Assembly: GCA_016196885.1 (NCBI GenBank)
Contig: JACPWU010000055.1
Span: 1 to 13,393 of the forward strand
Length of the DNA stretch: 13,393 nucleotides
DNA from: Chlamydiota bacterium
Lineage (GTDB): Bacteria > Auribacterota > JACPWU01
Reading direction: 5' to 3'
How positions within the stretch are numbered: position 1 is the stretch's first letter; the number at the start of each line of letters is the position of its first letter. Shown here in pieces: positions 1-13,393 of this stretch. A model generated the notes under the pieces. It saw only the letters and a program-made list of their open reading frames with translations. It did not search any database and had not been told where the DNA came from. Made by a program: the position numbers and the translations under genes.

Positions 1-209
1 CCAAGCTGCTTAATACTGTTTTTCCGCTCCTACTTTTTTCTATCATCCCCTCTTGCTACCTACTTCAAGGGACAATACGAAGCAAAATCTTTTGGATTTG
101 AATGATGCATACACACCCCCCTCCCCTTGGACTTAAAGCTTTTCAAACCCACACAATCCCGTTTTGGGGGTGACAGACCCTTTAGAATAAAAACATAATC
201 CTTTTGCTC

Positions 210-1496
210 TCATTTCCTTAGCTCCTTTTCCCCGATTCCTTCTCGATCTCTAGAGTTAACTCCAGAGTCAAGAAAATTTTTATTCTTTCGATAAAATAGT
301 TCGCATCCTAAAAAAAGATAAAACGGTCCATAAATGGCGGACATCCGCAACCCACTCCAAAGGTCAGGCACTCCATTATCCTGCGAAGATAGAAAATAAA
401 AGAACATCGTCCCCGAAAGCAACCACCAGGCCTTGAACCGTGTTATTCCGGTAAAGACTAGAATCCAGGTAAGATACCACGGGTGAACGCAAGGGCTCAC
501 CATCAAGAGCCAGGCCAAACTATAATGAATGCCCTGTATAGGATTGCACCAAAATTTTTTAAGAAGGACAGCCCCACCCGTCAAAAATATCCAAAGCAAT
601 ATCGTATTTTTATCCCGGGGAATAAACATAGACAAAGAACCATTCGATGAAGCGACTTTCCAAAATCGAATCGATTCCTGTAGTTGCGGGAAAGGGTGTC
701 CGTACAATATCAACCCTAAACAGGGAATTATGAAGACAAGCCATAACCAATTCTTTCTTTTCATCCTGAGCGCATAAAAGGGAAGCGCTATCACTGCCAC
801 TTCTTTAAAAAGAATGGAACAACACAAGAACAGGATCGCAAGAGCCTCTTTATTTTTCAAGAGACATCACAGACTTGCCAGCAAAAAGAAAATCATTAAG
901 CTGTCAAAATGCCCGCCTCCTGAGAAACTATAAATAACCAAGGGATTCCAGGCATACCACCATAGACGATGCTGAGGTATACCACAGAACCGCAGCATGT
1001 TCTGAAGAAAACAAATGATTCCAAAATCAGCGATTGTAAAAAGAACAGGGTTTTCTGCGATCCCTGAACATATTCTAAAAGTCAACTCTGCCAGGGGGGG
1101 ATAAATCGCTGAATAATCAGGGTGATTGATGAAAGGCCAATAGAATGTGCGAAGTGCCTCCAACTCATGAGAGCCTGGAGATAGCAAATAAGGACTATAT
1201 CCAAAATTCTGTATTTTCCCTTCCCAAATATATCTCCAAATATCATCCCCCGGATACATGGGAATAAGGATAATTCTAAAAAGAATGGCAACGGTGTAAC
1301 CTATCCACAAAGGTATTAATTTATTTTGGGTGAGAAAACGGCAAGCTAGGCCATACCCCCCCATGGCAAGCATTGCACCTAGAACGAAAAAAACGGGATA
1401 ATGAGGCTGGCGAAAATCGCCAAAAAAAGACAGAACAACAACCCCTACCCCCTCTATAACTAGAAAGGGGAAAATAAAAACAAAATTTTTCTTCAC
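210..1496 (-). pseudogene. Polytopic GT-C-fold membrane glycosyltransferase (DUF2029/GT87-like mannosyltransferase type), split by one in-frame TGA at 867..869
   Basis: ORFs 867..1496 and 210..860 are in the same frame. The minus strand reads ...FFLLASL-TGA-CLLKNKEALAIL..., which continues a hydrophobic helix across the stop. The N-terminal part has a first-loop acidic motif (YPGDDIWRYIWEGK) and YPPLAE. The C-terminal part has the HPWYLTWILVF motif typical of this family. There are many predicted TM helices. The start is GTG at 1496, 27 nt after the upstream stop. Confidence 0.6.
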
Positions 1497-1523
1497 AACT
1501 CACCACTCACTCATCACGATTGT

Positions 1524-3269
1524 TCAGATTCCGATCGTATTTAGTTTTAAAACATCTGTCGGGCAAACACTCACACAAAGGCCGCAGCCAATGCACGAGC
1601 TGTTGAGGTTGGTCAGCGTCTCGCCTTTTAATGCAAATTTTCGAACGTCAATTCCCACTTCGCAGTAACGTGTGCAAAGGTTACAGGCGATACATCTTTC
1701 CTTTCTGGGAAGAATGGCATAGTGACTTCGCCCTTTCTTTGTAAACCAGGCCGAAATCAAATGCATGAATCCGGCTGTCGGACACCAGTACCGGCACCAA
1801 ATTTTCCCGCCCAGGAAGGGATAAAGAGAGACTGGAATCACCGCGATTAAAGCAAAATCAACCGTCCAACTATAAAGCGTTTTGATAAAATTTTCACCCG
1901 GCACCTTGAGCATGGCCCAAAGGGTCGCAATCACCGCAAACGTCATGACGTAAAAAATCTGCCTTTCACGCTGACTATTGACTTTGCCTCCAGGCCGATA
2001 ATGACGCCATTTGTCCCCTAATGTTTCAGCCAACCCGCCACAGCCACAAATCCAAGAACAGTATTGTTTCCCTGTAAACATCACAAAGACCGGTAAAAGG
2101 ACAAATGATAAAATGACCGTCCACCAAAAATAAAACTTCTGTGGGCTTTGCAAAAAGGATTGCACCGTCACAGGGCTTAATCCCAAAGGCCAGGCGTATA
2201 AAAGGGAATACGCCTGCCAATGGTGCAAGATCACTTCAGGGATCACGCTAAAGAAAGTGGTTTGAAAGAAAACCGGCGAAAGATATTTTTTTGTTTGAAG
2301 AGAATCGCGATATCTTAGAATCGCTTTAATCCCAAAAATCCAGACCACGCCCGTATAAAGCCAGGGATAGAAAGAGCCTAAATTAAAATTTCCAAATTGA
2401 GGATGAATCTTTTTGAGTGTGTAAAACAAGCCTATCAAGCTCACCCACGAGAAAAACCAAATCCATGTCTTCCATCCAAATGTTCTTTCAAACCTTAAAG
2501 GAATTCGACAGAGCATATCCTGTGGAAGCTGGGTCACTTCCACATTTTCTTTTGTGACACAACCCTTTTCTTCGGCCACCTGAAGCTTGTTTAAAAGAAC
2601 GAGTTTTCCCACTGCGAGAATCACATGCTGAGCCTCATATTGGGCCCCTTCTGCGGCCTTTACGGCAAAGCGCCCCCCTTGCTTCAAAATGTCTTTAACT
2701 TGCTCTCCTATTTTTACTTTAATAGGATGCTCCTTCATCCAATCATCCCATTCGCTCAAAATCTTGTGTGTGACTGAATCATGAAATTCCAGATCCGACA
2801 GAACATGTTTTAACCCTGTCTTGGCGTAAAAAAGCGGCAAATCCTTCTCAAATTTTCGAACGGTTGTAAAAAGTTCGCTTTTCTCCAGCACAAGATAATC
2901 TACTCCCTGTTTCTCTAACTCCAAAGCTGCCGCAACCCCTGCAGGTCCGCCTCCAATAATTAAAACGGGCCAGATATCTTTCTCTTTCTTCTTCCCCTTC
3001 AAGCACTTTTCATAAAGATAACGGGCCGCAAGGACACCCTGATTTAATGCGGCTTTGATGTCTGGCTCACCTGAAAGATTCCCAATGATAAAAAGATTAT
3101 GAATATTGCTCTCGCCATGACGTGTGAGAACAGGATAGCGTTCCCCAAATTCCAAGATGGAATCCTTCCCGGTAAAAAGCGATTTCCACGTCGCGGGGTT
3201 TACCAATGCTTTTGTGTCTTCCCACACTGCTTTCAGTATTTGACGCAGACTAAGGGTAGTAATTTCCAT
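1524..3269 (-). CDS. Membrane flavo-iron-sulfur oxidoreductase: N-terminal FAD/NAD(P)-type Rossmann domain fused to a NapH/MauN-like polytopic domain and a C-terminal 2x[4Fe-4S] ferredoxin domain
   Basis: The 581-aa ORF has a dinucleotide-binding motif VLIIGGGPAGVAAALELEKQGVDYLVLEK and an HVILAVG (ATG-type) motif. It has several TM helices with the NapH-like motifs CSWICGCGG and WCRYWCP. The C-terminus has CIACNLCTRYCE and CIGCGLCVSVCP (CxxCxxCxxxC(P)). A GGGAG Shine-Dalgarno lies 5 nt upstream of the ATG, with a 10-nt gap to the upstream gene. Confidence 0.75.
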   Translation of the reverse strand: MEITTLSLRQILKAVWEDTKALVNPATWKSLFTGKDSILEFGERYPVLTRHGESNIHNLFIIGNLSGEPDIKAALNQGVLAARYLYEKCLKGKKKEKDIWPVLIIGGGPAGVAAALELEKQGVDYLVLEKSELFTTVRKFEKDLPLFYAKTGLKHVLSDLEFHDSVTHKILSEWDDWMKEHPIKVKIGEQVKDILKQGGRFAVKAAEGAQYEAQHVILAVGKLVLLNKLQVAEEKGCVTKENVEVTQLPQDMLCRIPLRFERTFGWKTWIWFFSWVSLIGLFYTLKKIHPQFGNFNLGSFYPWLYTGVVWIFGIKAILRYRDSLQTKKYLSPVFFQTTFFSVIPEVILHHWQAYSLLYAWPLGLSPVTVQSFLQSPQKFYFWWTVILSFVLLPVFVMFTGKQYCSWICGCGGLAETLGDKWRHYRPGGKVNSQRERQIFYVMTFAVIATLWAMLKVPGENFIKTLYSWTVDFALIAVIPVSLYPFLGGKIWCRYWCPTAGFMHLISAWFTKKGRSHYAILPRKERCIACNLCTRYCEVGIDVRKFALKGETLTNLNSSCIGCGLCVSVCPTDVLKLNTIGI

Positions 3270-3279
3270 ATAACTCCCA

Positions 3280-3744
3280 TCATTTTAGTATTTTGAACCC
3301 ATCACCTACAGCCTTCGCCACGTTCCCAAGACAGCAAGTCCCCTGGGGATTAGAGCGCTCACAAAAACAATGGCCAGAGCTGACCTCTTGTGTTATTGCT
3401 TCGACAGCCGTGGATTTGCCTGTCTGGCGAATTTCATCCCAAATTCTCACGCGATCCCACCCGAAGCAGTAACATACAGGAATAGGATCTTCTTTTTCTT
3501 TAATTCCCACCCTTACTTTTAAATCAGATTTATGGAAAAGAGAACCCCCTTGCAGCGAAAAATAAACGACAGGGCATTCAGAAGTTGAGCAAAACCAATA
3601 AGGCACGTCCTCAATGATGGATATGTCTTTCAAAAGATTTTCAGGAGTGACCCTCTGAACGGGTTTTCCTACCTTGCCGCATTCCGGGCAAGTCGTCTTT
3701 ACAGGTCTGACAGGTTCACAGCAGTTTCCCATACCAAGCCTCAC
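3280..3744 (-). CDS. CopZ N-terminal-domain-like zinc-ribbon/[2Fe-2S]-type Cys-rich metallochaperone candidate
   Basis: The ORF is 154 aa. Zinc-ribbon cysteines sit in TCPECGK...WFCSTSECPVVYF. The conserved block KVRVGIKEKEDPIPVCYCFGW...GHCFCERSNPQGTCCLGNV matches my recollection of the Archaeoglobus CopZ N-terminal Zn/[2Fe-2S] domain family. The GTG start at 3744 overlaps the upstream stop (GTGA). An alternative ATG lies at 3732. Confidence 0.6.
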   Translation of the reverse strand: MRLGMGNCCEPVRPVKTTCPECGKVGKPVQRVTPENLLKDISIIEDVPYWFCSTSECPVVYFSLQGGSLFHKSDLKVRVGIKEKEDPIPVCYCFGWDRVRIWDEIRQTGKSTAVEAITQEVSSGHCFCERSNPQGTCCLGNVAKAVGDGFKILK

Positions 3745-4301
3745 AATTTGGGTTTTTCAGCTTTGTAGCCTGTTCCATTAACTGCATTGACGATTTCGTC
3801 CAGGGACGTCTTTTGGGAATCGTAAGAAACTTGGGCAGTTCCCTCCCGGGCACTGGCCTGAACACTGCTGACACCGGGCAGTTTTTTTACGGCTTGTTGG
3901 ATAGCGATCTCACAGGTAAAACAGCTCATTCCTTTGACAGGAATTGAAACCTGAACGCCTGACTTTGAAAGACCCTCCTTAAGATTTCCCTTGGCGTAGG
4001 TGAAAAAATTAAGCCCTGCCAAAGCTAAAACAACCACCGAGGCCGAAATAAGAATGTTTTTGGTCATTTTCCTCCCTCCCATTTCACAATGAGCCGAAGC
4101 ACATGCCTTCCTTTCCTTGAAATAGCCTCTCCAAGCAAAGGCCAGCAACGCCGCAGCCCCCAGGATAAAATACCAATGATATTTTCCCAGAATCGCCCCT
4201 AAACCCAACCCTCCGAATCCAACCAAAACCAGCACAACCGGCCCCAAACAGCAAATGGATGCGATCATTGCTGATAGAAAACCTAAAACTTTTGCCTTCA
4301 T
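3741..4301 (-). CDS. merTP: MerT-like mercuric/soft-metal transporter fused to a C-terminal MerP-like HMA domain (MerTP-type fusion)
   Basis: TM1 reads AMIASICCLGPVVLVLVGFGG, comparable to Tn501 MerT ILASACCLGPLVLIALGFSG. A second Cys pair lies in a loop after TM2 (AWRGYFKERKACASAHC). After a third TM helix comes an HMA fold with GMSCFTCE (MxCxxC). A GAGGAG Shine-Dalgarno lies upstream of the ATG at 4301. Confidence 0.75.
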   Translation of the reverse strand: MKAKVLGFLSAMIASICCLGPVVLVLVGFGGLGLGAILGKYHWYFILGAAALLAFAWRGYFKERKACASAHCEMGGRKMTKNILISASVVVLALAGLNFFTYAKGNLKEGLSKSGVQVSIPVKGMSCFTCEIAIQQAVKKLPGVSSVQASAREGTAQVSYDSQKTSLDEIVNAVNGTGYKAEKPKL

Positions 4302-4321
4302 CTCCCCAATCTCCTCTCACA

Positions 4322-5032
4322 TCATTTTTGTTCATCATCATTCAAAGACCAATCATATCCTGTATACCGGATGCCATACGACGCCAAGTCGGACGGGGCT
4401 TTCGGCAGATAGGGCTCAATAAAGGATAAGACGGATCCCGACTTCTTTACAAAATCTGCTTCGAACCACTTAAAGATCGGTGATAAATAAATGACACCTT
4501 TAGCCGCGTCTAAAGAGTTTTTATTTTTATCGGATAGAAATATGCGGGCTTGGTCTTCCAATTGTTTTTGCAATTGATCCGGCACGTAAGGTTCCTCGCG
4601 AAGCGTGGGGCAGCCGCGCGCGGCACAGACCAGCGCGAAATGGATCAGGGGTTCCTGATACTGCTTTCGCAAGATGTCATGCTCAAGCGTACCCAAAGTC
4701 AAAGTCTTTCCAAATAAGCGAACGACAGGCTGATCCCAGGGCCCTTTAAAAAAGGTCCCGATTTTCTTGATACTCGCCACGGGATAATGATCAATCACCA
4801 GTGCGAGCGTTTGGGCATTATACAGATTGATCAAAAAGCTCAAACGCTGTTCTAGAGTCCATTTTTCGAATTCCTCTTCGGATACAGCCGCTGTTTTGTT
4901 CAGATACACATCCAATGTCAGCCGATCCGCCTTTAAAGCCGCATAATCAACACGGCCGTTTTGAACGTATTTTTTCAAAACATCGCCGTAGCGCGTATGC
5001 GTGTGATCAAACTCGGCAGCAAAAGACATCAT
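4322..5032 (-). CDS. DUF547 domain protein (mature domain only); its apparent signal-peptide coding part (5033..5087) is out of frame because of a G8 tract
   Basis: Family-typical blocks are present: NLYNAQTLALVIDHYPVASIKKI, PWDQP, LTLGTLEHDILR, EPLIHFALVCAARGCPTLREEPY and YLSPIFKWFEADF. An upstream ATG at 5087 preceded by GGAGAAG encodes MKNLKKLVIFALLAGG..., which is offset by 1 nt from the 5032 frame. Confidence 0.8.
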   Translation of the reverse strand: MMSFAAEFDHTHTRYGDVLKKYVQNGRVDYAALKADRLTLDVYLNKTAAVSEEEFEKWTLEQRLSFLINLYNAQTLALVIDHYPVASIKKIGTFFKGPWDQPVVRLFGKTLTLGTLEHDILRKQYQEPLIHFALVCAARGCPTLREEPYVPDQLQKQLEDQARIFLSDKNKNSLDAAKGVIYLSPIFKWFEADFVKKSGSVLSFIEPYLPKAPSDLASYGIRYTGYDWSLNDDEQK

Positions 5033-5038
5033 GGATGG

Positions 5039-5046
5039 CCCCCCCC
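5039..5046 (-). repeat. Homopolymeric G8 (minus strand) / C8 (plus strand) tract at the signal peptide/mature domain junction of the DUF547 gene
   Basis: Direct reading gives plus-strand cccccccc at 5039..5046. Removing one G fuses MKNLKKLVIFALLAGGPSMMSFA-AEFDH in frame. Confidence 0.9.
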
Positions 5047-5102
5047 GCCAATAAAGCGAAAATAACGAGCTTCTTGAGATTTTTCATGTTCTTCTCCATT
5101 TT

Positions 5103-5269
5103 AACCCTAAAACCGAAATTGGCGCGTGAACCGAGACGCAAGAGCTTGAGCCAGATTGGCCTGAAGAAAACGTAGGCATACATTGACAGATGTCTGTCGA
5201 GGCTTTCTGAAGGCCAAGGTGGCCAAGATCTTGCGTCGAATTCCGCGGTCCAATTTCGGTTTTAGGGTT
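5103..5269. repeat. Long imperfect hairpin with 20-bp perfect terminal inverted repeats (AACCCTAAAACCGAAATTGG / CCAATTTCGGTTTTAGGGTT); MITE-like element or structured leader RNA
   Basis: The arms at 5103..5122 and 5250..5269 are perfect reverse complements. The interior also pairs: 5135..5142 gacgcaag with 5230..5237 cttgcgtc, and 5156..5162 with 5211..5217. An apical hairpin forms between 5185..5189 and 5194..5198. TTA flanks a 165-bp core on both sides (5101..5103 and 5269..5271). Confidence 0.6.
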
Positions 5270-5328
5270 TAAATAAGTTTTCAGAATTAATTTCAAGAAA
5301 GTTCCTCATAAAAAAGTCATGGGCCATT

Positions 5329-6624
5329 TCACAATAAAAACACACCGTACAAAGGAACGGATTTGATATGATTCTCGAACCCAAAATTTTTTGCGGATAC
5401 CCTGATGGAATATTCAGACGGATATTTGGATAAATAAACCGATAGGCTTCTAGAACGCGTATGAGTTCCGGCTTTGACTTCTATCGGAATGACGAAGCCC
5501 TCTTTTTGAATCACAAAATCTATTTCCGCAATGCTTTTGGATTCCCAATAATGAAGGAGATATCCGTTTTTTTGCAATGCTTGTGCAACATAATTTTCCG
5601 TGATAGCACCCATAAAAGCGGCTCCTCCAAACGAGGAAAGAACGGCCTGTTGCGGAATCCCTGATTTTGCTGTCAAAAGCCCCACATCACTCATGTATAA
5701 CTTGAAACTGGATAAATCTTGATGCGCGCTCAGGGGGAGAAAGCCCTGTTCAACTTTTGTACATTTTAAAACAATACCCGATGCTTGCAACCAATCGAGC
5801 GCGATACCAAAAATGCTTGTGGTCCCCCCTTTTCGAACGAGCTTATATTGAAATTTCTTATTTTCCTTGGCAAGCTGTGTGGGAATCGAATCGTAGGCAC
5901 CCCTTATTTTGACACTTTCCGTAGGCGTCGCGTACTTTGCCATATCGGAAATGTACGCGTTCAGGATGTCGTTTTGAATGTCAGGAACGAGAAGTAATTT
6001 CCCTTCTTTAAGATATTCACGAATGCTTGCCGGCATCCCCCCCACAATGAGGTATTTTTGATATAATTCCAGCGCCTTCACGTGCAAGGCTTCTGGCAAA
6101 GGTGTATTCACGGCAAAGGCATTTCTGATTTCGTCTAACAAAGCCTCTTCGCCCAACGACCACAAAAACTCTTCAAAATCAAGAGGATGCAATGTCTCAA
6201 TTTCCACTTTTCCAACGGGGAATGAATATTTTTCTCTATTCAGCGCAACGCCCAAAAGACTTCCCGCGGCCATGACGGGGTATTCATGGGCCTCTTCACA
6301 AAAATACTTCAAGGAAGTCAGGGCCCTTTCGCAAATTTGGACCTCATCAAAGACGATGAGTGTTTGCCGCGGAAGAATGCGGACTCGGGAACTTGCTTCA
6401 AGGAGTGGAATGATTCGCTTGGGAGAAATATCTTGATCGAAATATGAGGCAATAGCAGGATTTGTTTCAAAGTTGACGTACACAAAATTTTGATAATGTT
6501 GAACAGCAAATTCGGTAATGAGATATGTTTTTCCGACTTGCCTTGCCCCATTCAAAATCAGAGGCTTGCGCTCGGATGCCCTTTCCTTCCATTTAACAAG
6601 CGTATCCATCATCTTTCGTTTCAT
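5329..6624 (-). CDS. AAA+ ATPase with C-terminal DUF4143 (PD-(D/E)xK nuclease-like) domain
   Basis: The ORF is 431 aa. It has a Walker A motif (LNGARQVGKTYL) and a Walker B-like motif (LIVFDEVQ). The C-terminal motif AEIDFVIQKEGFVIPIEVKAG is typical of the AAA_14/DUF4143 ATPase family. It looks intact. Confidence 0.85.
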   Translation of the reverse strand: MKRKMMDTLVKWKERASERKPLILNGARQVGKTYLITEFAVQHYQNFVYVNFETNPAIASYFDQDISPKRIIPLLEASSRVRILPRQTLIVFDEVQICERALTSLKYFCEEAHEYPVMAAGSLLGVALNREKYSFPVGKVEIETLHPLDFEEFLWSLGEEALLDEIRNAFAVNTPLPEALHVKALELYQKYLIVGGMPASIREYLKEGKLLLVPDIQNDILNAYISDMAKYATPTESVKIRGAYDSIPTQLAKENKKFQYKLVRKGGTTSIFGIALDWLQASGIVLKCTKVEQGFLPLSAHQDLSSFKLYMSDVGLLTAKSGIPQQAVLSSFGGAAFMGAITENYVAQALQKNGYLLHYWESKSIAEIDFVIQKEGFVIPIEVKAGTHTRSRSLSVYLSKYPSEYSIRVSAKNFGFENHIKSVPLYGVFLL

Positions 6625-6641
6625 ACATTCACCAGAAGCTA

Positions 6642-6670
6642 AATATACAAAATTATGATTAATAAGTCAA
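6642..6670 (-). promoter_or_regulatory. Candidate sigma70-type promoter for the ATPase gene (TTGACT-N17-TATATT), with the -35 inside the palindrome arm
   Basis: On the minus strand TTGACT lies at 6670..6665 and TATATT at 6647..6642, with a 17-nt spacer. The -10 ends 17 nt upstream of the ATG at 6624. This rests on the hexamer match only. Confidence 0.35.
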
Positions 6671-6709
6671 ATATAATAATTTATATATTATTATATTTGA
6701 CTTATTAAT
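6658..6709. repeat. Perfect 23-bp AT-rich inverted repeat with a 6-nt spacer, in the ArsS/ATPase intergenic region
   Basis: 6658..6680 (attaataagtcaaatataataat) is the exact reverse complement of 6687..6709. The spacer is ttatat. The repeat starts 8 nt after the ArsS stop codon. Confidence 0.9.
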
Positions 6710-6716
6710 TTAGCGC

Positions 6717-7697
6717 CTACGACCCATACGCCAACTGGTTTGAGGTTAGTGCCCCCTGACAACTTGAGCCGCATCCAGCAGTACATGCAAAACAATGGTT
6801 GGCCATCAGGATAGGAGCTTCTTTCAAATCCTTTAAACAGACGTCGAAAATAGTTACTGGTTTTCCATTTCTAATTTGAATCCCAAGCATTTGATTAAAA
6901 TCGCAATCATAAATCCTTCCATCCCATCCGACACTTAAAGTGTCTCGGCACATCAATTCCCCTAAAGTTCCGGGATTAAAGCTGTTAATTAAGAGTTCGA
7001 TATAAGATTCATAATGACTGAGGGCCTTCAGGTATTTTGCATAACGCGTGATGGGCATATTGGTAATCGTGTAAAGCTGGTTAAACGCAATTCCAAAATC
7101 ATCGCGAAGTCTCTTTTTGTAATCCGCTTCCAACTCCGCTTGAGAGGGCGGAAGATGAGGGCCTACTGGATTGTAAACTAAATTGAGAGCAAGCCCCGAT
7201 TCCGGCCGGCCATAGCCTAACCGGTTCAGCCATTGAAGCGCTTCGATAGACTTTGCAAAGGTTCCACGCCCTCGCTGCTCATCCACATTCTCCTTGGAGT
7301 AGCACGGAAGTGAAGCAATAACCTCAACCTGATGTTGAGCTAAAAAATCAGGGATGTCCTCCATTCCATGCTCAAAAAAAACGGTTAAATTGCAGCGATC
7401 GATCACATGAAGATTCTTGCGTCTTCCCTCCTTAATCAGATATTTAAAATGGGGATTCAGCTCAGGGGCTCCGCCCGTGATATCCAACGTTTCGAAACAA
7501 GCTTGATCCATCAACCTGACCACAGCCTCTGCTGTGGCGCTCGTCATATTCTCTTTCTTTTTTGACGGCCCAGCCTCGACATGACAATGGACACAGGCAA
7601 GATTGCAAAGCTTACCGACATTGACTTGGAGGATATGAAGCTTGCCCTTTTTCAACTTTACGCCCAGCGCTGTAAGTTTCTGATCAAAATGATTCAT
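6717..7697 (-). CDS. arsS: ArsS-type radical SAM/Cys-rich-domain protein (arsenosugar-biosynthesis radical SAM family; all-Cys form of a family that includes selenoproteins)
   Basis: The radical SAM motif is CNLACVHCHV. Family blocks are present: LDITGGAPELNP, IDRCNLTV, ASLPCYSKENVDEQRG, LVYNP, TITNMPI and WDGRIYDCDFNQML. The C-terminal motif is HCFACTAGCGSSCQGAL. I start the gene at ATG 7697 (MNHFDQK), which overlaps the PiT stop as ATGA. The longer track ORF to 7805 would overlap the upstream gene by 112 nt. Confidence 0.85.
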   Translation of the reverse strand: MNHFDQKLTALGVKLKKGKLHILQVNVGKLCNLACVHCHVEAGPSKKKENMTSATAEAVVRLMDQACFETLDITGGAPELNPHFKYLIKEGRRKNLHVIDRCNLTVFFEHGMEDIPDFLAQHQVEVIASLPCYSKENVDEQRGRGTFAKSIEALQWLNRLGYGRPESGLALNLVYNPVGPHLPPSQAELEADYKKRLRDDFGIAFNQLYTITNMPITRYAKYLKALSHYESYIELLINSFNPGTLGELMCRDTLSVGWDGRIYDCDFNQMLGIQIRNGKPVTIFDVCLKDLKEAPILMANHCFACTAGCGSSCQGALTSNQLAYGS

Positions 7698-8530
7698 ACC
7701 TTCACCATAAACGTATTCAATACCCAAAAAACTGTTCCCGCCAGAACCGCGGCAAGCGGCAGGGTTAACACCCACGCCGAAACAATTCCCCCAATCATTT
7801 TCCATCGAGCCTTACCCGTCACCATCCCAATTCCAAAGAGTGAGCCACAGGAGACATGTGTTGTGGAGACAGGGAGTCCCCAGCGGGAGGCAAAAATCAC
7901 GAGAATGGAGGTGATTAAGTTGGCCGTGAAACCCTGTCCATGGTTCATCCGGGTGATTCGATGAGACATCGTATAAGCCACTTTTTTTGCGCTAAAGAAC
8001 CCGCCTGCTCCCATGACGACGCCCACTAAAAAAATATTCCAACTCAAACCCAATTCAAGCGCGCCTGCAGCGACTGAAAGCGCCACCATTTTCGGCGTGT
8101 CATTTAAACCCCGCGCAAAACTGACTGCACCCGCGCTCGCAAAATGGAAAAAATTCAAAACCTTTTGCGCATCAAGGCCAAACACTCTTCCTGCATAAAG
8201 CTCTACGGCCGTTCTATCGCATGAAACCTTATCTCCCACAAAAATATCCAAGGAACGCCCGTGAGATTCACAAAGAGAGCCTCCTGTATTTAAAGCCAGG
8301 CTTCTTACGGGAACGAACCGCTCCCCAACACAAACACAAGATTGCTTATTCACACGCAAGGCCAAGCGGACCCATCTGAAAAGAGGATAAATGATCGACG
8401 TTAAGACAAGGGCCATGAAGGGGCTCAAAATGAGCGGGAGAAAGAAATTCTTTCCTAGAACGGTATAGCCTAAATTGCCCTTGAGCGCCACAAATCCTGC
8501 CCCGCCAAGGCGCCTTACTATTACCCACAA
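7694..8530 (-). pseudogene. PiT (PHO4) family phosphate/anion transporter, 5'-truncated by the IS; native sequence ends at 8513
   Basis: PiT signature blocks are GLNDTPK and GLPVSTTHVSCGSLFGIG. The N-terminal GANDxA-type repeat half is missing. The track start (TTG at 8530) and the first 5 to 6 codons lie inside the IS left inverted repeat. Confidence 0.7.
8514..8529. repeat. IS left terminal inverted repeat CTTACTATTACCCACA
   Basis: It is the exact reverse complement of 10389..10404. Confidence 0.85.
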
Positions 8531-8565
8531 GTAGGGGTGATCCCTGTTTAAGATTTATATTTTCA

Positions 8566-8868
8566 TCATTGCCGTCTCTTCACATCCGATACCCATGGGG
8601 CATTTAGCAAAGCCTGTTTTAGGAGTAAGGCAATCTGTTTTTGAAACTGCCTGTACCGAGCCACTCGATTCTTGCACTCTCGTGCGACCTCCCTGCTGAT
8701 TGTTTTTGTAGTTCTCTTTCCTTCAAGAACCCCTGTCCAGCGATAGTAAGTTCCATGCAGCTTGGGTTGTTTGGATTGGCACACGCAGTTTTGTTTTCCA
8801 CACCGGCTTTTCGCCGTTGAAATGCTCCCAGGCAAAATAGGTCCTTTGAAATGGATGATTATTTTCAT
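8566..8868 (-). CDS. Small IS-internal Cys-motif protein (DUF6788-like: GS-x7-CGKxNCxC-x7-HGxYY), divergent from the transposase
   Basis: The 100-aa ORF reads PGSISTAKSRCGKQNCVCQSKQPKLHGTYYRWTGVLEGKRTTKTI, followed by a basic helical tail. It lies between the left repeat and the transposase start. The family assignment is from memory of the motif. Confidence 0.55.
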   Translation of the reverse strand: MKIIIHFKGPILPGSISTAKSRCGKQNCVCQSKQPKLHGTYYRWTGVLEGKRTTKTISREVARECKNRVARYRQFQKQIALLLKQALLNAPWVSDVKRRQ

Positions 8869-8934
8869 ATCTTAATGTATTATAGCATTAGGATACGATG
8901 GAATCAAAAGAATCAAATTCAATGGGGAGGGAAC

Positions 8935-10383
8935 ATGAATTCAAAGAAAGAGGAAAAGCACGCCGACGATTGGGCTGCCAAGGAGTTTGGAGCCATTGAT
9001 TTTGGAGACAAGCGACTGACAAAACGCCTTATTCAAATTGCCGATCGTTTATCAGAAGCACCCCAGTCCCCTATTAATCAGGCTTGTGGCAGGTGGGCTG
9101 AAACGAAGGCTGCCTATCGATTTTTTCAAAATGAGACTGTTTGCGAAAAGGACATCTTATCTTCACATGTACAACAAACAGTCGAAAGAACCAAAAAACA
9201 GGAAACGATCTTGGTGATCCAAGATACAAGCTACGTGGTCTATACAAGTCATGAAAAGACGACGGGTCTTGGCATGATCTCGGCAGCCCCAGGAAAGAAC
9301 GTAAAGGCGGTATCGACAAATGGACTGATCATGCATACCTCCTTTGCCGTCACGACGGAGGGACTCCCCATAGGTCTTTTAGATCAAAATGTTTTCTCTC
9401 GAAAATCTCAGTCGGAAGAATTAAAAGAGAAAAAGAAGAGGAGTCACAACACCAATGTGGCCATTGAAGACAAGGAAAGTATTCGTTGGCTAAACGCACT
9501 GAAAAAGACTCAAGGTGCGGTTTTGGGTTCCAAAGTGCATGTGGTGACTGTTTGCGATCGTGAAGGAGATTTTTATGAATTTCTAGAATGGGCGCATGAG
9601 CGGAATGCTTCTGTTTTGGTCAGAGCACGGGAAGATCGGAAGATCAATCAGTCTTCACGCTATTGTAAAACAAATAGCTGACTTTGGGGTACGATCTACG
9701 CCCTGCCCAGTCAGGGGATTATTGAAGTTGAGATTCCAGCCAGAAATCAAAAGCCCGCAAGAACTGCAAAACTAGAAACGAGGTTTGGTTCCTTTAGAAT
9801 GAATCCTCCTCGTAATCATATTCGACATAAAACCGAAAACTTACCTGATCTTAATCTCAATGCCGTGTACGTTGTGGAGACACACCCCCCGGATGGAGGA
9901 GAGGCGCTGGAGTGGATGTTACTGACGGATTTGCCTGTGACTCATTTTGATGAGGCCGTTGAAAAAGTGCGATGGTATTGTCTGCGTTGGCGAATAGAGG
10001 TTTTTCACAAAGTTTTAAAATCGGGGCTTCGGGTTGAACAGTGCAGACTCCAGACAGCAGATAGACTCATTCGGTATCTGACGGTCATGAGTATTATTGC
10101 ATGGAGAATCTATTGGACGACCTTGATTGCTCGCACAAATCCCCAGACGCCATGTACTTCCCTTCTTGCTGAAGAAGAGTGGAAGGTGTTGTATTCCAAG
10201 ATTCATAACACAAAATCATATCCCAAAAAGCCTCCGCCCATACGAGATGCCGTTCGTTGGATTGCGATGTTGGGCGGGTTTTTGGCCAGAAAATCAGATG
10301 GGGAGCCGGGAGTCACTACAGTGTGGCGAGGCTGGAAACGCTTATTTGACCTATCAGAGGGCTGGAACCTTGCTCAGACTTAG
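8935..10383 (+). pseudogene. IS4-family (Tn5 Tnp-like) DDE transposase with a single in-frame TGA at 9679..9681
   Basis: The start is ATG 8935, preceded by GGGGAGGGA. The N-terminus ADDWAAKEFGAIDFGDKRLTKRL resembles Tn5 AADWAKSVFSSAALGDPRRTARL. The DDE context is IQDTSY, VCDREGDFYEF and RWRIEVFHKVLK. The C-terminus reads LGGFLARKSDGEPGVTTVWRGWKRL. Both track ORFs are in frame 1, and 9682..9798 has no further stop. Confidence 0.85.
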
Positions 10384-10940
10384 ACATCTGTGGGTAATAG
10401 TAAGTTTAACACGGGATAACGTCCCTTCGTCACTTTCAATTCTGCTCGAGCCATTGCGTATTTTCCCTTAAGCTCATCGACTTGATCCTGAGAAATGAGA
10501 TTTGGGCTTTTTTTAATAAGTTCTCGAGCCCTTTCATACTGCGCTTTTTTCCAAGTCCAGTCCGCCTTGGCTTTTTTGATTTCGAGGGGAGCCAGGGCGA
10601 GCGCGGCTTTCTGGGCTTCGAGCTCCTTCATCAATTCAGGGATCTGAATTTGAGCCAAGACCTGTCCCTCCTTGACCCAAGAGCCGCGATCGACCTCCAA
10701 ACGGTCGAGATAGCCACTGACATGACCATAAATGATGACCTCTTGATCAGCCACAACATCTCCAGGAAGAACCAAGATACGATTCATGTCTTTCTTGAGG
10801 GGAATTTGTACCTCAACATGCGGTTGTTTTTCCAACTCCGAGGAAACACGATTCTTATCTTTTGAAATCAAAACCTTGATCCCGCTAACACCGACGATCA
10901 CAACAAAAAAAACAGCCAAAATAACAATGATTTTACGCAT
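10380..10940 (-). pseudogene. RND-type periplasmic adaptor (membrane fusion protein, HlyD family), 3'-truncated by the IS; native sequence is 10405..10940
   Basis: From ATG 10940 the protein starts MRKIIVILAVFFVVIVGVSG (membrane anchor). A lipoyl-type segment (GHVSGYLDRLEVDRGSWVKEGQVLAQI) and the start of the coiled coil follow. The reading frame then runs into the IS right repeat, so the last about 8 codons and the TAA are IS-derived. Only about half the expected length is present. Confidence 0.7.
10389..10404. repeat. IS right terminal inverted repeat TGTGGGTAATAGTAAG
   Basis: It is the exact reverse complement of 8514..8529. Confidence 0.85.
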
Positions 10941-13393
10941 GATTTGCCTCTCTCTTTTTGAACATGGAATATAAAATCGGTAGAATATACGCAGATAAAA
11001 CGGTCGATGAAAAGACGCCGCCAATCACGGCTCGAGCCAGGGGGATATTGGCTCCCCCCGCAATGGCCATGGGGACAAGCCCCAACATCGTCGCCAGTGA
11101 AGTCATGAGAATAGGTCTCAGACGAGGTTTTGAAGCTTGGAGAATGGCGTCATGGACCGTGGCCCCTTCGGCCAAAAGACGATTGGCAAAATCAACTCTT
11201 AAGACCGAAGAGGAAACTTCAATTCCGATCGCCATGATCATCCCCATCAGAGACTGAATGTTGATATGTATCCCCGTTAAAAACAACATCCACAAGACGC
11301 CAATCATCCCCAAGGGAACAGCGGACATCACGAGCAAAGGATCTTTCATCGAGCGGAATTGAACCACCATGACGAGATACACAAGCAAAACGGCTAGAAT
11401 CAATCCAAAACCTAAATCTCCAAATGAATCCTTCATACTTTTGACCTCCCCTCGGCTGATCAAACGATAGCCTGAAGGAAGCCTTCCTTCTTTTTCAATT
11501 TCGCCCATCACGGTTTCGACCTCTTTGGAAACACTGCCCAAATCCCGCCCTTCTACATCGGCGTAGACATCTATCACGCGATTAATATTATAGTGCGTCA
11601 CCTCGGAAGAAGCAGACGAACGTTTTAGATGGACGAGATTGTGCAAAAGAACAGGATCTCGTTGATTGGGTCCTGTAATCGGAACATTGAGAAGCGTTTC
11701 CAAATCCTTGAAATCCTTTTCAGGATATTGGGCGCCAATCCAATAATGGTTTCCGTTTTTCTCATCAATCCAGAAGGATTTTGAAAAACTAATCGATGAA
11801 TTAAACGCCGTCACGACATTTTTCACCACATCGTCTGGAGAAAGTCCCAGTTCGGCGGTCTTACGCCGATCCATCTCAATTTTAAATTGAGGATAGTCCA
11901 GCCGCTGCTGAATCCGAACATCCACGGTCCCTCGAATTTTTTTAATGCGTTTTTTGAGTTCCTCTGCGATCCCGTATGAGACATGCAAATCATTTCCCTG
12001 AACCTGAACATTGATCGGGGCCGACATTCCAAAATTAAGAGCGGAGCGAAGCATGCTGTTGGGTTCGAAGGTAAATTCAATTCCGGGATAGTGATCCGTT
12101 AGGACTTGGCGCAACTTTTTCATATATTCTCGATCGCTCATCGGCCGATGATCAAAAAGTTGAACCAGCATAAAGGCATCCTGCGGCCCAGAATTGGGCG
12201 TATAGGCCGCGGGCCAGTCATTTAAAACCCCAATATTGGTAATGAGTTTACGCAGATTTTTTGGGCCAATCTCTTCTCGCACCGTCTCCTCGACCTGAGC
12301 AAGAATTCGCTCCATTTCATTGACCTGAGTCCCGGAATTGGCCCTGACCCGAAGGGTCAACTGTCCTGAATCCACCTGAGGAAATAATTCTGTACCCACG
12401 AAAAAAATTAAAACGAGCGATGCAAAAAAAGCCGCTGCAACAAGGGCCAGCGCCTTTAGGCGAAAAGAGGACAGGACTCGATCAAGAGACCGCATGTAAA
12501 TTGCTTGAAGTTTTTCAAACGCATGAGCAAGCCCACCTGCAATACCTCTCTCTTCTTGAGCATGCAACGATTTTTTAAAAAATCTCGCCGCGCAAGCAGG
12601 GACAAGGGTCATCGCCATCACATAGGAAGCGGCCATGGCCAGCATCACCGCTAAAGCCAAAGGGGTAAATAAATATTTACCAATCCCCGTCAAAAAGATC
12701 ACGGGGAAAAAGACAATGCAAACCGTCATCACAATAATCAAAACAGGCTTGGCAACTTCTAGGGCCGCGTCCTGGGCCGCAACCGAGGGCTCCTTCCCCA
12801 TTTTCAAATGCCGCTCTGTATTTTCGAGCACCACAATGGATTGATCGATTAGAAGACCAATGGAAATAGCCAAACCTTCAAGTGTCATGGCATCCACAGA
12901 ATGCCCTGTAAAATAAAGTCCAATTAAGGCAGCCAGGATGGAAAGCGGCAGGGAAAGAAGAATAATCCAGGTCGAACGAAAACTTCTCAAAAAAAGTAAA
13001 ATCATGATCGCCGCAAGTAACGTCCCGATCAGTCCTTCATGGACAAGATTTCGAATTGATTCGCGAACAAAAGTAGATTGATCAAAAACAACTTCGAGAT
13101 CGACTCCCTTGGGCAATCTCGCATTCAACTCCGGAATCGCTTTACGCACCCCGTCTACCACCTTGAGCGTATTGGCGCCGGGCTAACGGTAAATCGGAAC
13201 ATACAGCTGTCTTTTCCCATCCACGCGCACAATATTAGACTGGAGTTCCGCGCTGTCCTGGGCACGGCCAATGTCTTTCAGGAGGACAGGGGCTCGACCG
13301 TCTAACTTGATCGGAAATTCATTCAGGCCCGAGGCTTGAGGCACCATCGCATTCGATTCAATCTGATATTCGATGGGCCCCATCCGAGCACTC
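10933..13393 (-). pseudogene. RND efflux permease (AcrB/CzcA superfamily), partial at the window edge, with an in-frame TAG at 13183..13185
   Basis: ORFs 13183..13383 and 10933..13161 are in the same frame. The minus strand reads ...QLYVPIYR-TAG-PGANTLKVVDGVRKAIPELN. RND blocks are present, including GLAISIGLLIDQSIVVLENTERH, with TM bundles and porter domains. The frame stays open to 13393. Confidence 0.8.

Follow-up and report, generated by a model that had tools for sequence, protein, structure and literature searches.

What do the uptake and chaperone parts of a mer-like system do where MerA and MerR are missing? The question is raised by four tightly packed genes on contig JACPWU010000055.1 of a Chlamydiota bacterium (GenBank assembly GCA_016196885.1), of which we analysed the stretch from position 1 to 13,393 (13,393 nt, here called the window). 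The genes encode a DUF547 protein, a MerT-like transporter with a C-terminal HMA domain (MerT-HMA), a stand-alone protein resembling the N-terminal domain of CopZ (CopZ-N-like) and a 581-aa membrane protein which joins a flavin domain to iron-sulfur motifs (flavo-Fe-S). An earlier reading made from the letters alone, here the original prediction, took this quartet for an undescribed metal or metalloid uptake-and-reduction module with the flavo-Fe-S protein standing instead of MerA and MerR.

We found that the conserved unit is a larger cluster around the arsenosugar-biosynthesis radical SAM protein ArsS, not the quartet, and that in other phyla each of the four genes turns up as an accessory of ArsS clusters, present in some and absent from others. 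The families are uncharacterised and their context is a metalloid one, namely arsenic, so that this part of the prediction stands and the self-contained unit does not. We read the quartet as the downstream part of a partly decayed, co-directional arsenosugar-type (ArsS) organoarsenical cluster, and give this reading as a whole a probability of about one half. That the quartet belongs to an ArsS-type cluster is very probable, and the arsenic thiol-relay and reductase mechanism discussed below is tentative.

The quartet and its ArsS-type surroundings

The co-directional order of the four genes and their spacings of 20 nt (DUF547/MerT-HMA), -4 nt (MerT-HMA/CopZ-N-like) and 10 nt (CopZ-N-like/flavo-Fe-S) were reproduced from the coordinates of the open reading frames (ORFs). 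The -4 nt GTGA overlap holds for the ORFs as read, but the more likely start of the CopZ-N-like gene is ATG 3732, which leaves an 8-nt gap. A GAGG lies 7 nt before this ATG, and the protein that it gives agrees with the NCBI-annotated 150-aa product P0241. Profile searches with Pfam and NCBIfam agreed with the predicted components, matching DUF547, MerT, HMA, zf_CopZ and NapH-type/4Fe-4S domains.

An exact-match look-up of the 581-aa protein gave no contig. Relatives of the protein were collected from 80 genome loci, 80 metagenome loci and four loci reached via exact-protein look-ups (about 165). Partners were searched by tblastn of the window proteins against the 80 genome loci and by phmmer on six-frame ORFs of the 165 loci, with the same outcome. 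MerT/CopZ-like genes lay near the flavo-Fe-S gene in three distinct loci: the window, L081/L082 (one organism) and L095. In the last of these, a MerR-CopZN-MerT-HMA operon is found 4 kb from a long-form flavo-Fe-S gene, with opposite-strand genes between them. DUF547 stood next to a distant flavo-Fe-S relative once only (L065), and the flavo-Fe-S relatives at 30-47% identity were without all three partners. The flavo-Fe-S protein was not found in any of six loci reached via the DUF547 or the CopZ-N-like protein. The four genes are thus not co-conserved as a module across genomes, an outcome which the original prediction had itself named as contradicting it.

The ArsS/PiT pair that the prediction placed one gene upstream of the quartet was confirmed. 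ArsS scored 447 bits on TIGR04167 (cutoff 300), with the model match beginning at residue 51. Its true start is probably M37 at position 7697, where the stop codon of the phosphate (arsenate) transporter gene PiT overlaps the start of ArsS as ATGA (7694-7697); the overlap suggests translational coupling of PiT and ArsS. PiT lies directly before ArsS, in the same order, in L166, L167, L168, L169 and L171.

Orthologues of the flavo-Fe-S protein with at least 50% identity occur in six distinct loci (window, L001, L081/82, L083, L084 and L085), and all six contain arsenosugar-cluster genes. Five of them hold ArsS; L083 has instead a radical-SAM/methyltransferase fusion at the contig edge. A GT87-like gene is adjacent to the flavo-Fe-S gene in five (window, L001, L083, L084 and L085), and DUF547 and PiT are present in most. 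The neighbours in these loci scored above cutoffs on TIGR04282 (156 and 205 bits, cutoff 134) and TIGR04283 (227 bits, cutoff 182), as did ArsS. The ArsM-like methyltransferase neighbour reached 220 bits on NF008823, below the cutoff of 263, and an ArsC-like phosphatase was also present.

The complete set of ArsM, TIGR04282 and TIGR04283 was found in L084, L085, L168, L169 and L171. Three DUF547-centred loci on unrelated contigs, L165 (Elusimicrobia), L166 and L167, all carry an ArsM-like gene, PiT, ArsS (or the fusion), DUF547 and DedA in a row, to which a MerA-like flavoprotein is added in two of the three. The fusion replaces separate ArsS and ArsM with a radical SAM plus methyltransferase protein of about 830-850 aa (L165:661-3213, L083:1-459).

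Among 12 ArsS-type loci, PiT is present in 10, DUF547 and an ArsM-like gene in 9 each, and MerT with CopZ-N-like, MerA-like, DedA and GT87-like genes in 6 each. The flavo-Fe-S gene is likewise in 6 of the 12, all of them found by searching with flavo-Fe-S. Clusters of this type with quartet parts come from Omnitrophota, Elusimicrobiota and unclassified metagenome contigs. In the literature that we searched on DUF547, DUF2064/TIGR04282, ArsS neighbourhoods and arsenolipid gene clusters, we found no description of the extended cluster. A preprint of Haft on selenoproteins mentions MerT-family selenoproteins in passing only.

Compared with the known ArsM/ArsS arsenosugar genes (TIGR04167, TIGR04282, TIGR04283, NF038099), the window shares a bona fide ArsS, probably coupled to PiT, and its relatives hold the full set in one orientation together with quartet genes. 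In contrast to the described pathway, the window is without ArsM and both glycosyltransferases. The DUF547, MerT-HMA/CopZ-N-like, flavo-Fe-S and GT87-like genes are additions, and we found no paper naming them there.

The whole gene run of the window lies on the minus strand between 210 and 8530 (Table 1) and reads PiT, ArsS, an ATPase gene, DUF547, MerT-HMA, CopZ-N-like, flavo-Fe-S and a GT87-like gene. The GT87-like gene begins only 27 nt downstream of the flavo-Fe-S gene, and therefore the quartet is not bounded at 1524. The AAA_14/DUF4143 ATPase gene between ArsS and DUF547 is probably an insertion: its flanking gaps of 92 and 241 nt are the two largest, and it has no counterpart in any related locus examined. 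An Rfam scan of the window found no RNA family, and a promoter and terminator scan gave background level only.

Table 1. Genes and other features of the window
Feature	Position	Strand	Evidence
PiT/PHO4 phosphate (arsenate) transporter, 5'-truncated	7694..8530	minus	Pfam PHO4, tblastn
ArsS, arsenosugar-biosynthesis radical SAM protein	6717..7805	minus	NCBIfam TIGR04167; Pfam Radical_SAM + DUF3641
AAA_14/DUF4143 ATPase, probable insertion, not part of system	5329..6624	minus	Pfam
DUF547 periplasmic protein, frameshifted (+1), CxxxxC (VCAxxGCP)	4322..5087 (ORF 4322-5032)	minus	Pfam PF04784
MerT-like three-helix transporter + C-terminal HMA/MerP-like domain	3741..4301	minus	Pfam MerT, HMA
Stand-alone CopZ-N-terminal-like Zn-ribbon/[2Fe-2S] protein, C-terminal CC	3280..3744	minus	NCBIfam NF047645, PDB 2HU9 alignment
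Membrane flavo-polyferredoxin (flavo-Fe-S), 581 aa	1524..3269	minus	Pfam/NCBIfam, 19-homologue alignment, AlphaFold2 model
GT87/MptA_B-like polytopic glycosyltransferase, one in-frame TGA at 867-869	210..1496	minus	tblastn with L084 protein
DUF6788 gene + broken Tn5/IS4-type transposase bounding/truncating cluster	8566..10383	not assigned	Pfam

The protein families of the quartet

MerT-HMA contains a MerT domain (PF02411, E 4e-13, 50 bits, cutoff 33) and an HMA domain (PF00403, E 6e-14). Its motifs are a CC pair in the first transmembrane helix (TM1), a CASAHC loop and GMSCFTC; all 8 homologues compared keep the CC pair and the CxxxxC loop unchanged. Since the HMA domain follows helix 3 of MerT, it is predicted to be periplasmic. 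The protein scored below the cutoffs of both the NCBIfam MerTP_fusion model (106 bits, cutoff 180) and the MerT equivalog PRK13751 (51 bits, cutoff 150), and is MerTP-like with a periplasmic HMA domain, not a MerTP equivalog. With the mer transport half (MerP, MerT, MerTP) it shares the three-helix topology, the CC pair in TM1, the cytoplasmic Cys pair, the periplasmic MxCxxC HMA domain and, in four relatives, a MerR upstream. It differs in its scores, in the CxxxxC loop, in the absence of MerA, MerB and MerR from the window and in its arsenic-gene partners. The locus resembles the mer transport half and is not a member of the mer operons.

The CopZ-N-like protein matched zf_CopZ (PF18423, E 8e-17) and, above cutoff, NF047645 (CopZ_Nterm_CC, putative iron-sulfur cluster-binding metallochaperone; 126 bits, cutoff 100), and it is a true member of this family. 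It is homologous to the Archaeoglobus fulgidus CopZ N-terminal domain (PDB 2HU9; Zn ribbon and [2Fe-2S], which reduces Cu(II)) over the whole domain, with E 1.6e-17. By eye, the cysteines that we checked, the terminal CC among them, fall in matching positions. Unlike A. fulgidus CopZ, the window protein stands alone and has no HMA domain of its own. HMA is here a part of the transporter, and a MerT-like importer takes the place of the CopA ATPase as partner.

The predicted pairing of uptake and chaperone parts proved to be conserved. Of the 9 distinct loci that we examined, 8 have MerT and the CopZ-N-like gene side by side, which supports MerT(-HMA) with CopZ-N-like as a conserved soft-metal(loid) handling pair. 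The three sampled CopZ-N-like homologues with 62-72% identity (L168 and L171, two loci of one metagenome-assembled genome (MAG), and L169, Omnitrophica) lie beside a MerT-like gene, inside or at the edge of an ArsS-type cluster. The CopZ-N-like genes of L081 and L165 likewise have a MerT-like neighbour in or beside the cluster. A MerR-family gene and a conserved 57-codon ORF precede the pair in L168 and L169, and in L165 MerR, MerT-HMA, CopZ-N-like and an HMA gene lie 5 kb from the ArsS block. In the window, L081 and L171, the pair is without its own regulator, on the same strand and within 25 nt of cluster genes, which indicates co-transcription.

The MerR-like regulators of L168 (8934-9589) and L169 (8806-9425) carry a CC pair and one C-terminal Cys, which may together form a three-sulfur site. 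Their scores on the MerR, ZntR, CueR and CadR models are much alike and all stay below cutoff. The MerT-like proteins at L168:9651-10004 and L171:9651-10004 are without HMA and end in ...QCACP, possibly a minimal Cys pair that serves in the periplasm in place of MerP/HMA.

Among the window ORFs scanned against Pfam and NCBIfam, there was no MerA, MerR, MerB or P-type ATPase, as the prediction had said, and the MerR and MerA-like proteins of related loci gave no tblastn match in the window. The idea that the flavo-Fe-S protein stands in their place did not hold in the relatives. MerR precedes the pair in L165, L168, L169 and L095, and a MerA-like flavoprotein coexists with flavo-Fe-S in L081 and L083. 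Related ArsS-type clusters commonly hold a class-I flavoprotein of MerA-like type together with a DedA partner; these flavoproteins scored 393-404 bits on TIGR02053, below its cutoff of 454. One plasmid match annotated "merA" (H9) was discarded as uninformative, being really a 411-aa CopZ-like fusion and not MerA.

The 581-aa flavo-Fe-S protein combines Pyr_redox_3 (profile positions 1-157 of 305 only) with Fer4_5 (NapH-type) and Fer4_21/Fer4 domains. The NapH-like part has two CX3C motifs, with CSWICGCGG and CRYWCP invariant in 19 homologues, and the C-terminal domain contains two CxxCxxCxxxC motifs, corresponding to 2x[4Fe-4S], so that the motif pattern of the NapH family was found. The cluster motifs read CIACNLCTRYC and CIGCGLCVSVCP. 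Scores on NapH/MauN TIGR02163 (61 bits, cutoff 213, residues 367-577 only) and YpdA/Bdr TIGR04018 (55 bits, cutoff 340, profile positions 2-135 of 316 only) stayed below cutoff, as did a weak Fer4_18 match (E 4e-4), and no CcoG model was among the best 25 NCBIfam matches. The AlphaFold2 model (pLDDT 73) shows about six long membrane helices. The window product carries all of the 100-odd columns that are invariant in the 19-sequence alignment built around it.

The predicted architecture of flavin, NapH-like and two 4Fe-4S parts was borne out in its domains, except that the flavin domain is incomplete. In the window's clade it has no NAD(P)H-binding subdomain, while longer relatives (690-780 aa, e.g. 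P0094) possess a second GxGxxG/NAD(P)H subdomain between the FAD half and the membrane part. By permutation, the C-terminal FAD motif has come to stand at the N-terminus; its sequence is IIGN..G.PDIKAALN, with GN rather than GD. Residues ~75-210 gave the best fold and sequence matches in the PDB to YpdA/Bdr bacillithiol disulfide reductase, TrxR and TrxR-type ferredoxin-NADP reductases (Foldseek E 3e-7; hmmsearch E 2e-19); the PDB matches extend over no more than about 130 residues. In contrast to those enzymes, only the first FAD half matches, the NAD(P)H subdomain is deleted, the FAD motif is N-terminal and a membrane Fe-S module is fused. The alignment of the 19 same-architecture homologues showed no conserved cysteine or other obvious metal site in the flavin domain. 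Since the NAD(P)H subdomain is gone, the usual supply of electrons from NAD(P)H is not available, and on this point the predicted electron route, which did not pass through an NADPH-dependent reductase, agrees with our analysis.

With NapH/MauN, NosR/NirI and CcoG the flavo-Fe-S protein shares a polytopic part that holds two CX3C(P) motifs (Fer4_5) and precedes cytoplasmic 2x[4Fe-4S]; CcoG is a precedent for a metal reductase of this general design. NapH/MauN, NosR/NirI and CcoG are not known to carry an N-terminal FAD domain, and NosR has a periplasmic FMN-binding domain. The flavo-Fe-S protein differs from NapH, NosR and CcoG in its N-terminal FAD domain, and no NapG/NapA, NosZ or cbb3 oxidase genes are nearby. 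In the long-form relatives, a conserved upstream gene in the same direction encodes a Cys-rich membrane protein of about 260 aa with a CxxC...GD element, a C-terminal zinc ribbon and no Pfam family (weak DZR matches only). It was found in 55 loci (L161:1157-1945 and 54 others) and is the dominant neighbour of the wider flavo-Fe-S family. Unbiased neighbour clustering of this family gave the ~260-aa protein as the sole recurrent partner and nothing metal- or arsenic-specific.

The DUF547 protein matched PF04784 with E 8e-24 (84.5 bits, gathering cutoff 27). Its motif reads VCAARGCP in the window, and VCAxxGCP (CxxxxC) is invariant. Homologues are numerous (4079 at E<=1e-10), with 53-73% identity among the top matches listed. 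The AlphaFold2 model of 4322-5032 is confident (pLDDT 92.8, pTM 0.90), and Foldseek found no match to it in the PDB at E<=0.001. The protein thus appears, as far as the model goes, to have no solved structural relative, and with its 4079 homologues it is a worthwhile structural target by itself.

Defects of the window copy

The window locus is decaying or poorly assembled. The prediction had described a secreted DUF547 protein with a CAARGCP Cys pair; domain and motif are there, but the signal peptide is cut off by a frameshift. ATG 5087, where the signal peptide begins, is out of frame with the DUF547 ORF, which starts at 5032, and a +1 shift in a minus-strand G8 run (5039-5046) splits the two. 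Deleting one G from the run gives MKNLKKLVIFALLAGGPSMMSFAAEFDH, whose N-terminus aligns with the closest homologues, including the signal peptides of P0122 and P0123. The gene as encoded is broken, and the shift may come from a sequencing error, mark a pseudogene or reflect a slippage-prone tract.

About 112 residues are missing from the N-terminus of PiT: what is left covers PHO4 profile positions 98-350 of 350, and the full-length PHO4 proteins of L168 and L169 align by tblastn from residues 112 and 115 on. PiT abuts a DUF6788 gene and a Tn5/IS4-type insertion sequence (IS) exactly where, in relatives, ArsM lies directly upstream of PiT, and the IS probably removed ArsM from the window cluster. 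The transposase itself is split into two ORFs (8851-9681 and 9799-10383; Tnp_DNA_bind, DDE_Tnp_1 and Dimer_Tnp_Tn5). By tblastn, with L168/L169 queries for the first three, the window contains no ArsM, TIGR04282, TIGR04283, DedA, MerA-like or MerR gene.

The GT87-like gene is divided by the in-frame TGA into two ORFs (867-1496 and 210-860), and one tblastn high-scoring segment pair of the L084 MptA_B protein spans both. The four aligned GT87-like orthologues have Leu or Ile at this position, which makes selenocysteine unlikely. Recoding of TGA as the cause was rejected because the DUF547, MerT-HMA and CopZ-N-like genes end in genuine TGA where their homologues end. An RND (AcrB-type) pump gene that runs off the contig end has an in-frame TAG at 13183-13185 (VPIYR*PGAN), where AcrB-type pumps typically have Gln (CAG; RQPGAN). 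This stop, together with the other defects, suggests general gene decay or a low-quality assembly. The ArsS, MerT-HMA, CopZ-N-like and flavo-Fe-S genes are intact.

A possible arsenic route and its alternatives

In the mechanism that we tentatively propose, arsenate would enter via PiT, and the HMA domain would catch thiophilic trivalent arsenic species in the periplasm. Following the path of Hg(II) in MerP/MerT, these would move past the CC pair of MerT TM1 and on to the CxxxxC loop on the cytoplasmic side. The [2Fe-2S] CopZ-N-like protein would then take over the arsenic with its CC motif and hand it to the methylation and adenosylation enzymes ArsM and ArsS. The pair would in this way form a thiol relay like that of MerP, MerT and NmerA. 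Its tight integration into arsenosugar operons (window, L081, L171) points to a thiophilic trivalent arsenical as cargo, bound for ArsM and ArsS.

The cofactors of the flavo-Fe-S protein are all predicted to be cytoplasmic, and its NapH-like part would link the quinone pool to a cytoplasmic two-electron step, which would leave the flavin available for reducing either a small molecule or another protein as partner. ArsS adenosylates trivalent dimethylarsenic, DMAs(III) (PMC13598754). Because ArsS needs this trivalent substrate, we propose that the flavo-Fe-S protein may hold arsenicals, or the proteins or molecules that carry them, in the reduced state. We favour a step in which it reduces pentavalent arsenicals or the carriers of these, with low confidence, since ArsS chemistry is redox-neutral and the flavin domain shows no evident site for a metal or for arsenic. 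The flavo-Fe-S protein would work beside the GT87-like glycosyltransferase in a lipid-linked late step, and the periplasmic DUF547 protein would act on the exported product. GT87-family enzymes use polyprenyl-phospho-sugar donors. The GT2 protein (TIGR04283), DedA, the GT87-like protein and DUF547 would together fit a polyprenyl-phosphate-linked export route; one report proposes DedA proteins as undecaprenyl-phosphate flippases (PMC10127716).

Several points weigh against placing the quartet in an arsenic pathway. The loci were found by searching with the counted genes, so the frequencies are biased. Same-architecture flavo-Fe-S relatives with 38-47% identity (L086-L091) have no arsenic genes in the DNA available, and CopZ-N-like homologues with 37-52% identity occur outside an arsenic-biosynthesis context. 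L170 has ArsR, CopZN, MerT and HMA alone, with no arsenic-biosynthesis genes, and L172 has CopZN alone. In L174 (Peribacillus asahii plasmid NZ_CP085715.1, 113287-115860), translational coupling joins a CopZ-N-like '(2Fe-2S)-binding protein' to a MerR that PGAP names Hg(II)-responsive, and a multicopper oxidase follows. Because of such homologues the pair may be a module of generic type for Cu or Hg. Once primed, ArsS runs a redox-neutral reaction and needs no dedicated reductase, so we downgraded the flavo-Fe-S protein as a dedicated reductant supply for ArsS. None of the four families has been tied to arsenic by experiment, and their function is read from gene context. Finally, the window copy, without ArsM, TIGR04282 and TIGR04283 and with three damaged genes, may not function at all. 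As a separate observation, an ars operon lies 2.5 kb from the CopZ-N-like gene of L174.

Three other explanations have to be set against the ArsS-cluster reading. The original prediction, in its Hg/Cu form, amounts to a self-contained module in which MerT-HMA imports the metal, CopZ-N-like receives it and flavo-Fe-S reduces it in MerA's place, in the manner of CcoG. We keep it as a minority rival because of two precedents, CcoG as a membrane 2x[4Fe-4S] Cu(II) reductase and the Cu(II)-reducing Fe-S domain of A. fulgidus CopZ (PMC7558416). In its favour, the three genes lie side by side in one direction in the window and L081/82, a long-form relative lies near the mer-like operon of L095, MerR-family regulators precede the pair in four loci, and the plasmid homologues adjoin merR and a multicopper oxidase. 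However, the association is found in only 3 distinct loci of about 165 and in none of the six reached from DUF547 or CopZ-N-like, and the L095 genes are separated by opposite-strand genes. The constant partners of flavo-Fe-S are ArsS and the GT87-like gene, not MerT, and its flavin domain shows no conserved cysteine or obvious metal site; we regard this module as unlikely. Slightly less improbable is that MerR-MerT-CopZN is a generic copper/mercury cassette that shares metal(loid) islands with ArsS clusters and no common pathway. Such a cassette would explain the pair's own MerR or ArsR regulator in L165, L168, L169, L095 and L170, the distant homologues without arsenic-biosynthesis genes, the copper chaperones and copper ATPases that the HMA domain matches best, and the divergently oriented genes which set the L165 cassette apart from the ArsS block. 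It fits poorly with the window, L081 and L171, where the pair has no regulator and lies on the same strand at most 25 nt from arsenosugar-cluster genes. Moreover, every examined homologue with at least ~62% identity stands at an ArsS cluster, and chance would hardly produce this in four or more different lineages.

The third alternative, which concerns this MAG rather than the family, is that the quartet arrangement is a decaying remnant left by rearrangement and gene loss, with no current function. We consider this possible, with odds well short of even. The truncated PiT beside a broken Tn5-like IS, the frameshifted DUF547, the in-frame TGA of GT87 and TAG of the RND pump, the absent ArsM, TIGR04282 and TIGR04283 and the inserted, unrelated ATPase gene all point this way. 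On the other hand, ArsS, MerT-HMA, CopZ-N-like and the 581-codon flavo-Fe-S gene are intact, the last with all its ~100 invariant columns, and a homopolymer shift and single-base stops could be assembly or sequencing errors of the MAG. A remnant here would also be compatible with the ArsS-cluster reading for intact relatives such as L084 and L085.

A more far-reaching version of the ArsS-cluster reading, which we regard as a long shot, would have mer-operon logic applied to arsenic. A MerP/MerT-like relay and a CC-motif chaperone under a MerR-like sensor would import trivalent arsenic for arsenosugar-type products. An NAD(P)H-independent, quinone-linked flavo-polyferredoxin would re-reduce pentavalent (methyl)arsenicals for ArsM and ArsS, and the product would be exported in lipid-linked form (GT2, DedA, GT87-like) to DUF547. 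If this were true, the long search for the enzyme that brings pentavalent (methyl)arsenicals back to trivalent form would end with the flavo-polyferredoxin.

Among the forms of arsenic in the biosphere, arsenosugars and arsenolipids are major ones, and to our knowledge only ArsM and ArsS have been characterised in the arsenosugar pathway. Our analysis nominates five uncharacterised families: DUF547, the MerTP-like importer, the CopZ-N-like Fe-S protein, the flavo-polyferredoxin without an NAD(P)H domain and the GT87-like transferase. Together with the DedA/MerA-like pair, they are candidates for the supply of trivalent arsenic, its reduction, glycosylation and export. ArsS clusters with these accessories occur in the non-photosynthetic lineages Chlamydiota, Omnitrophota and Elusimicrobiota, which, as far as we know, have not been recognised for arsenosugar production.

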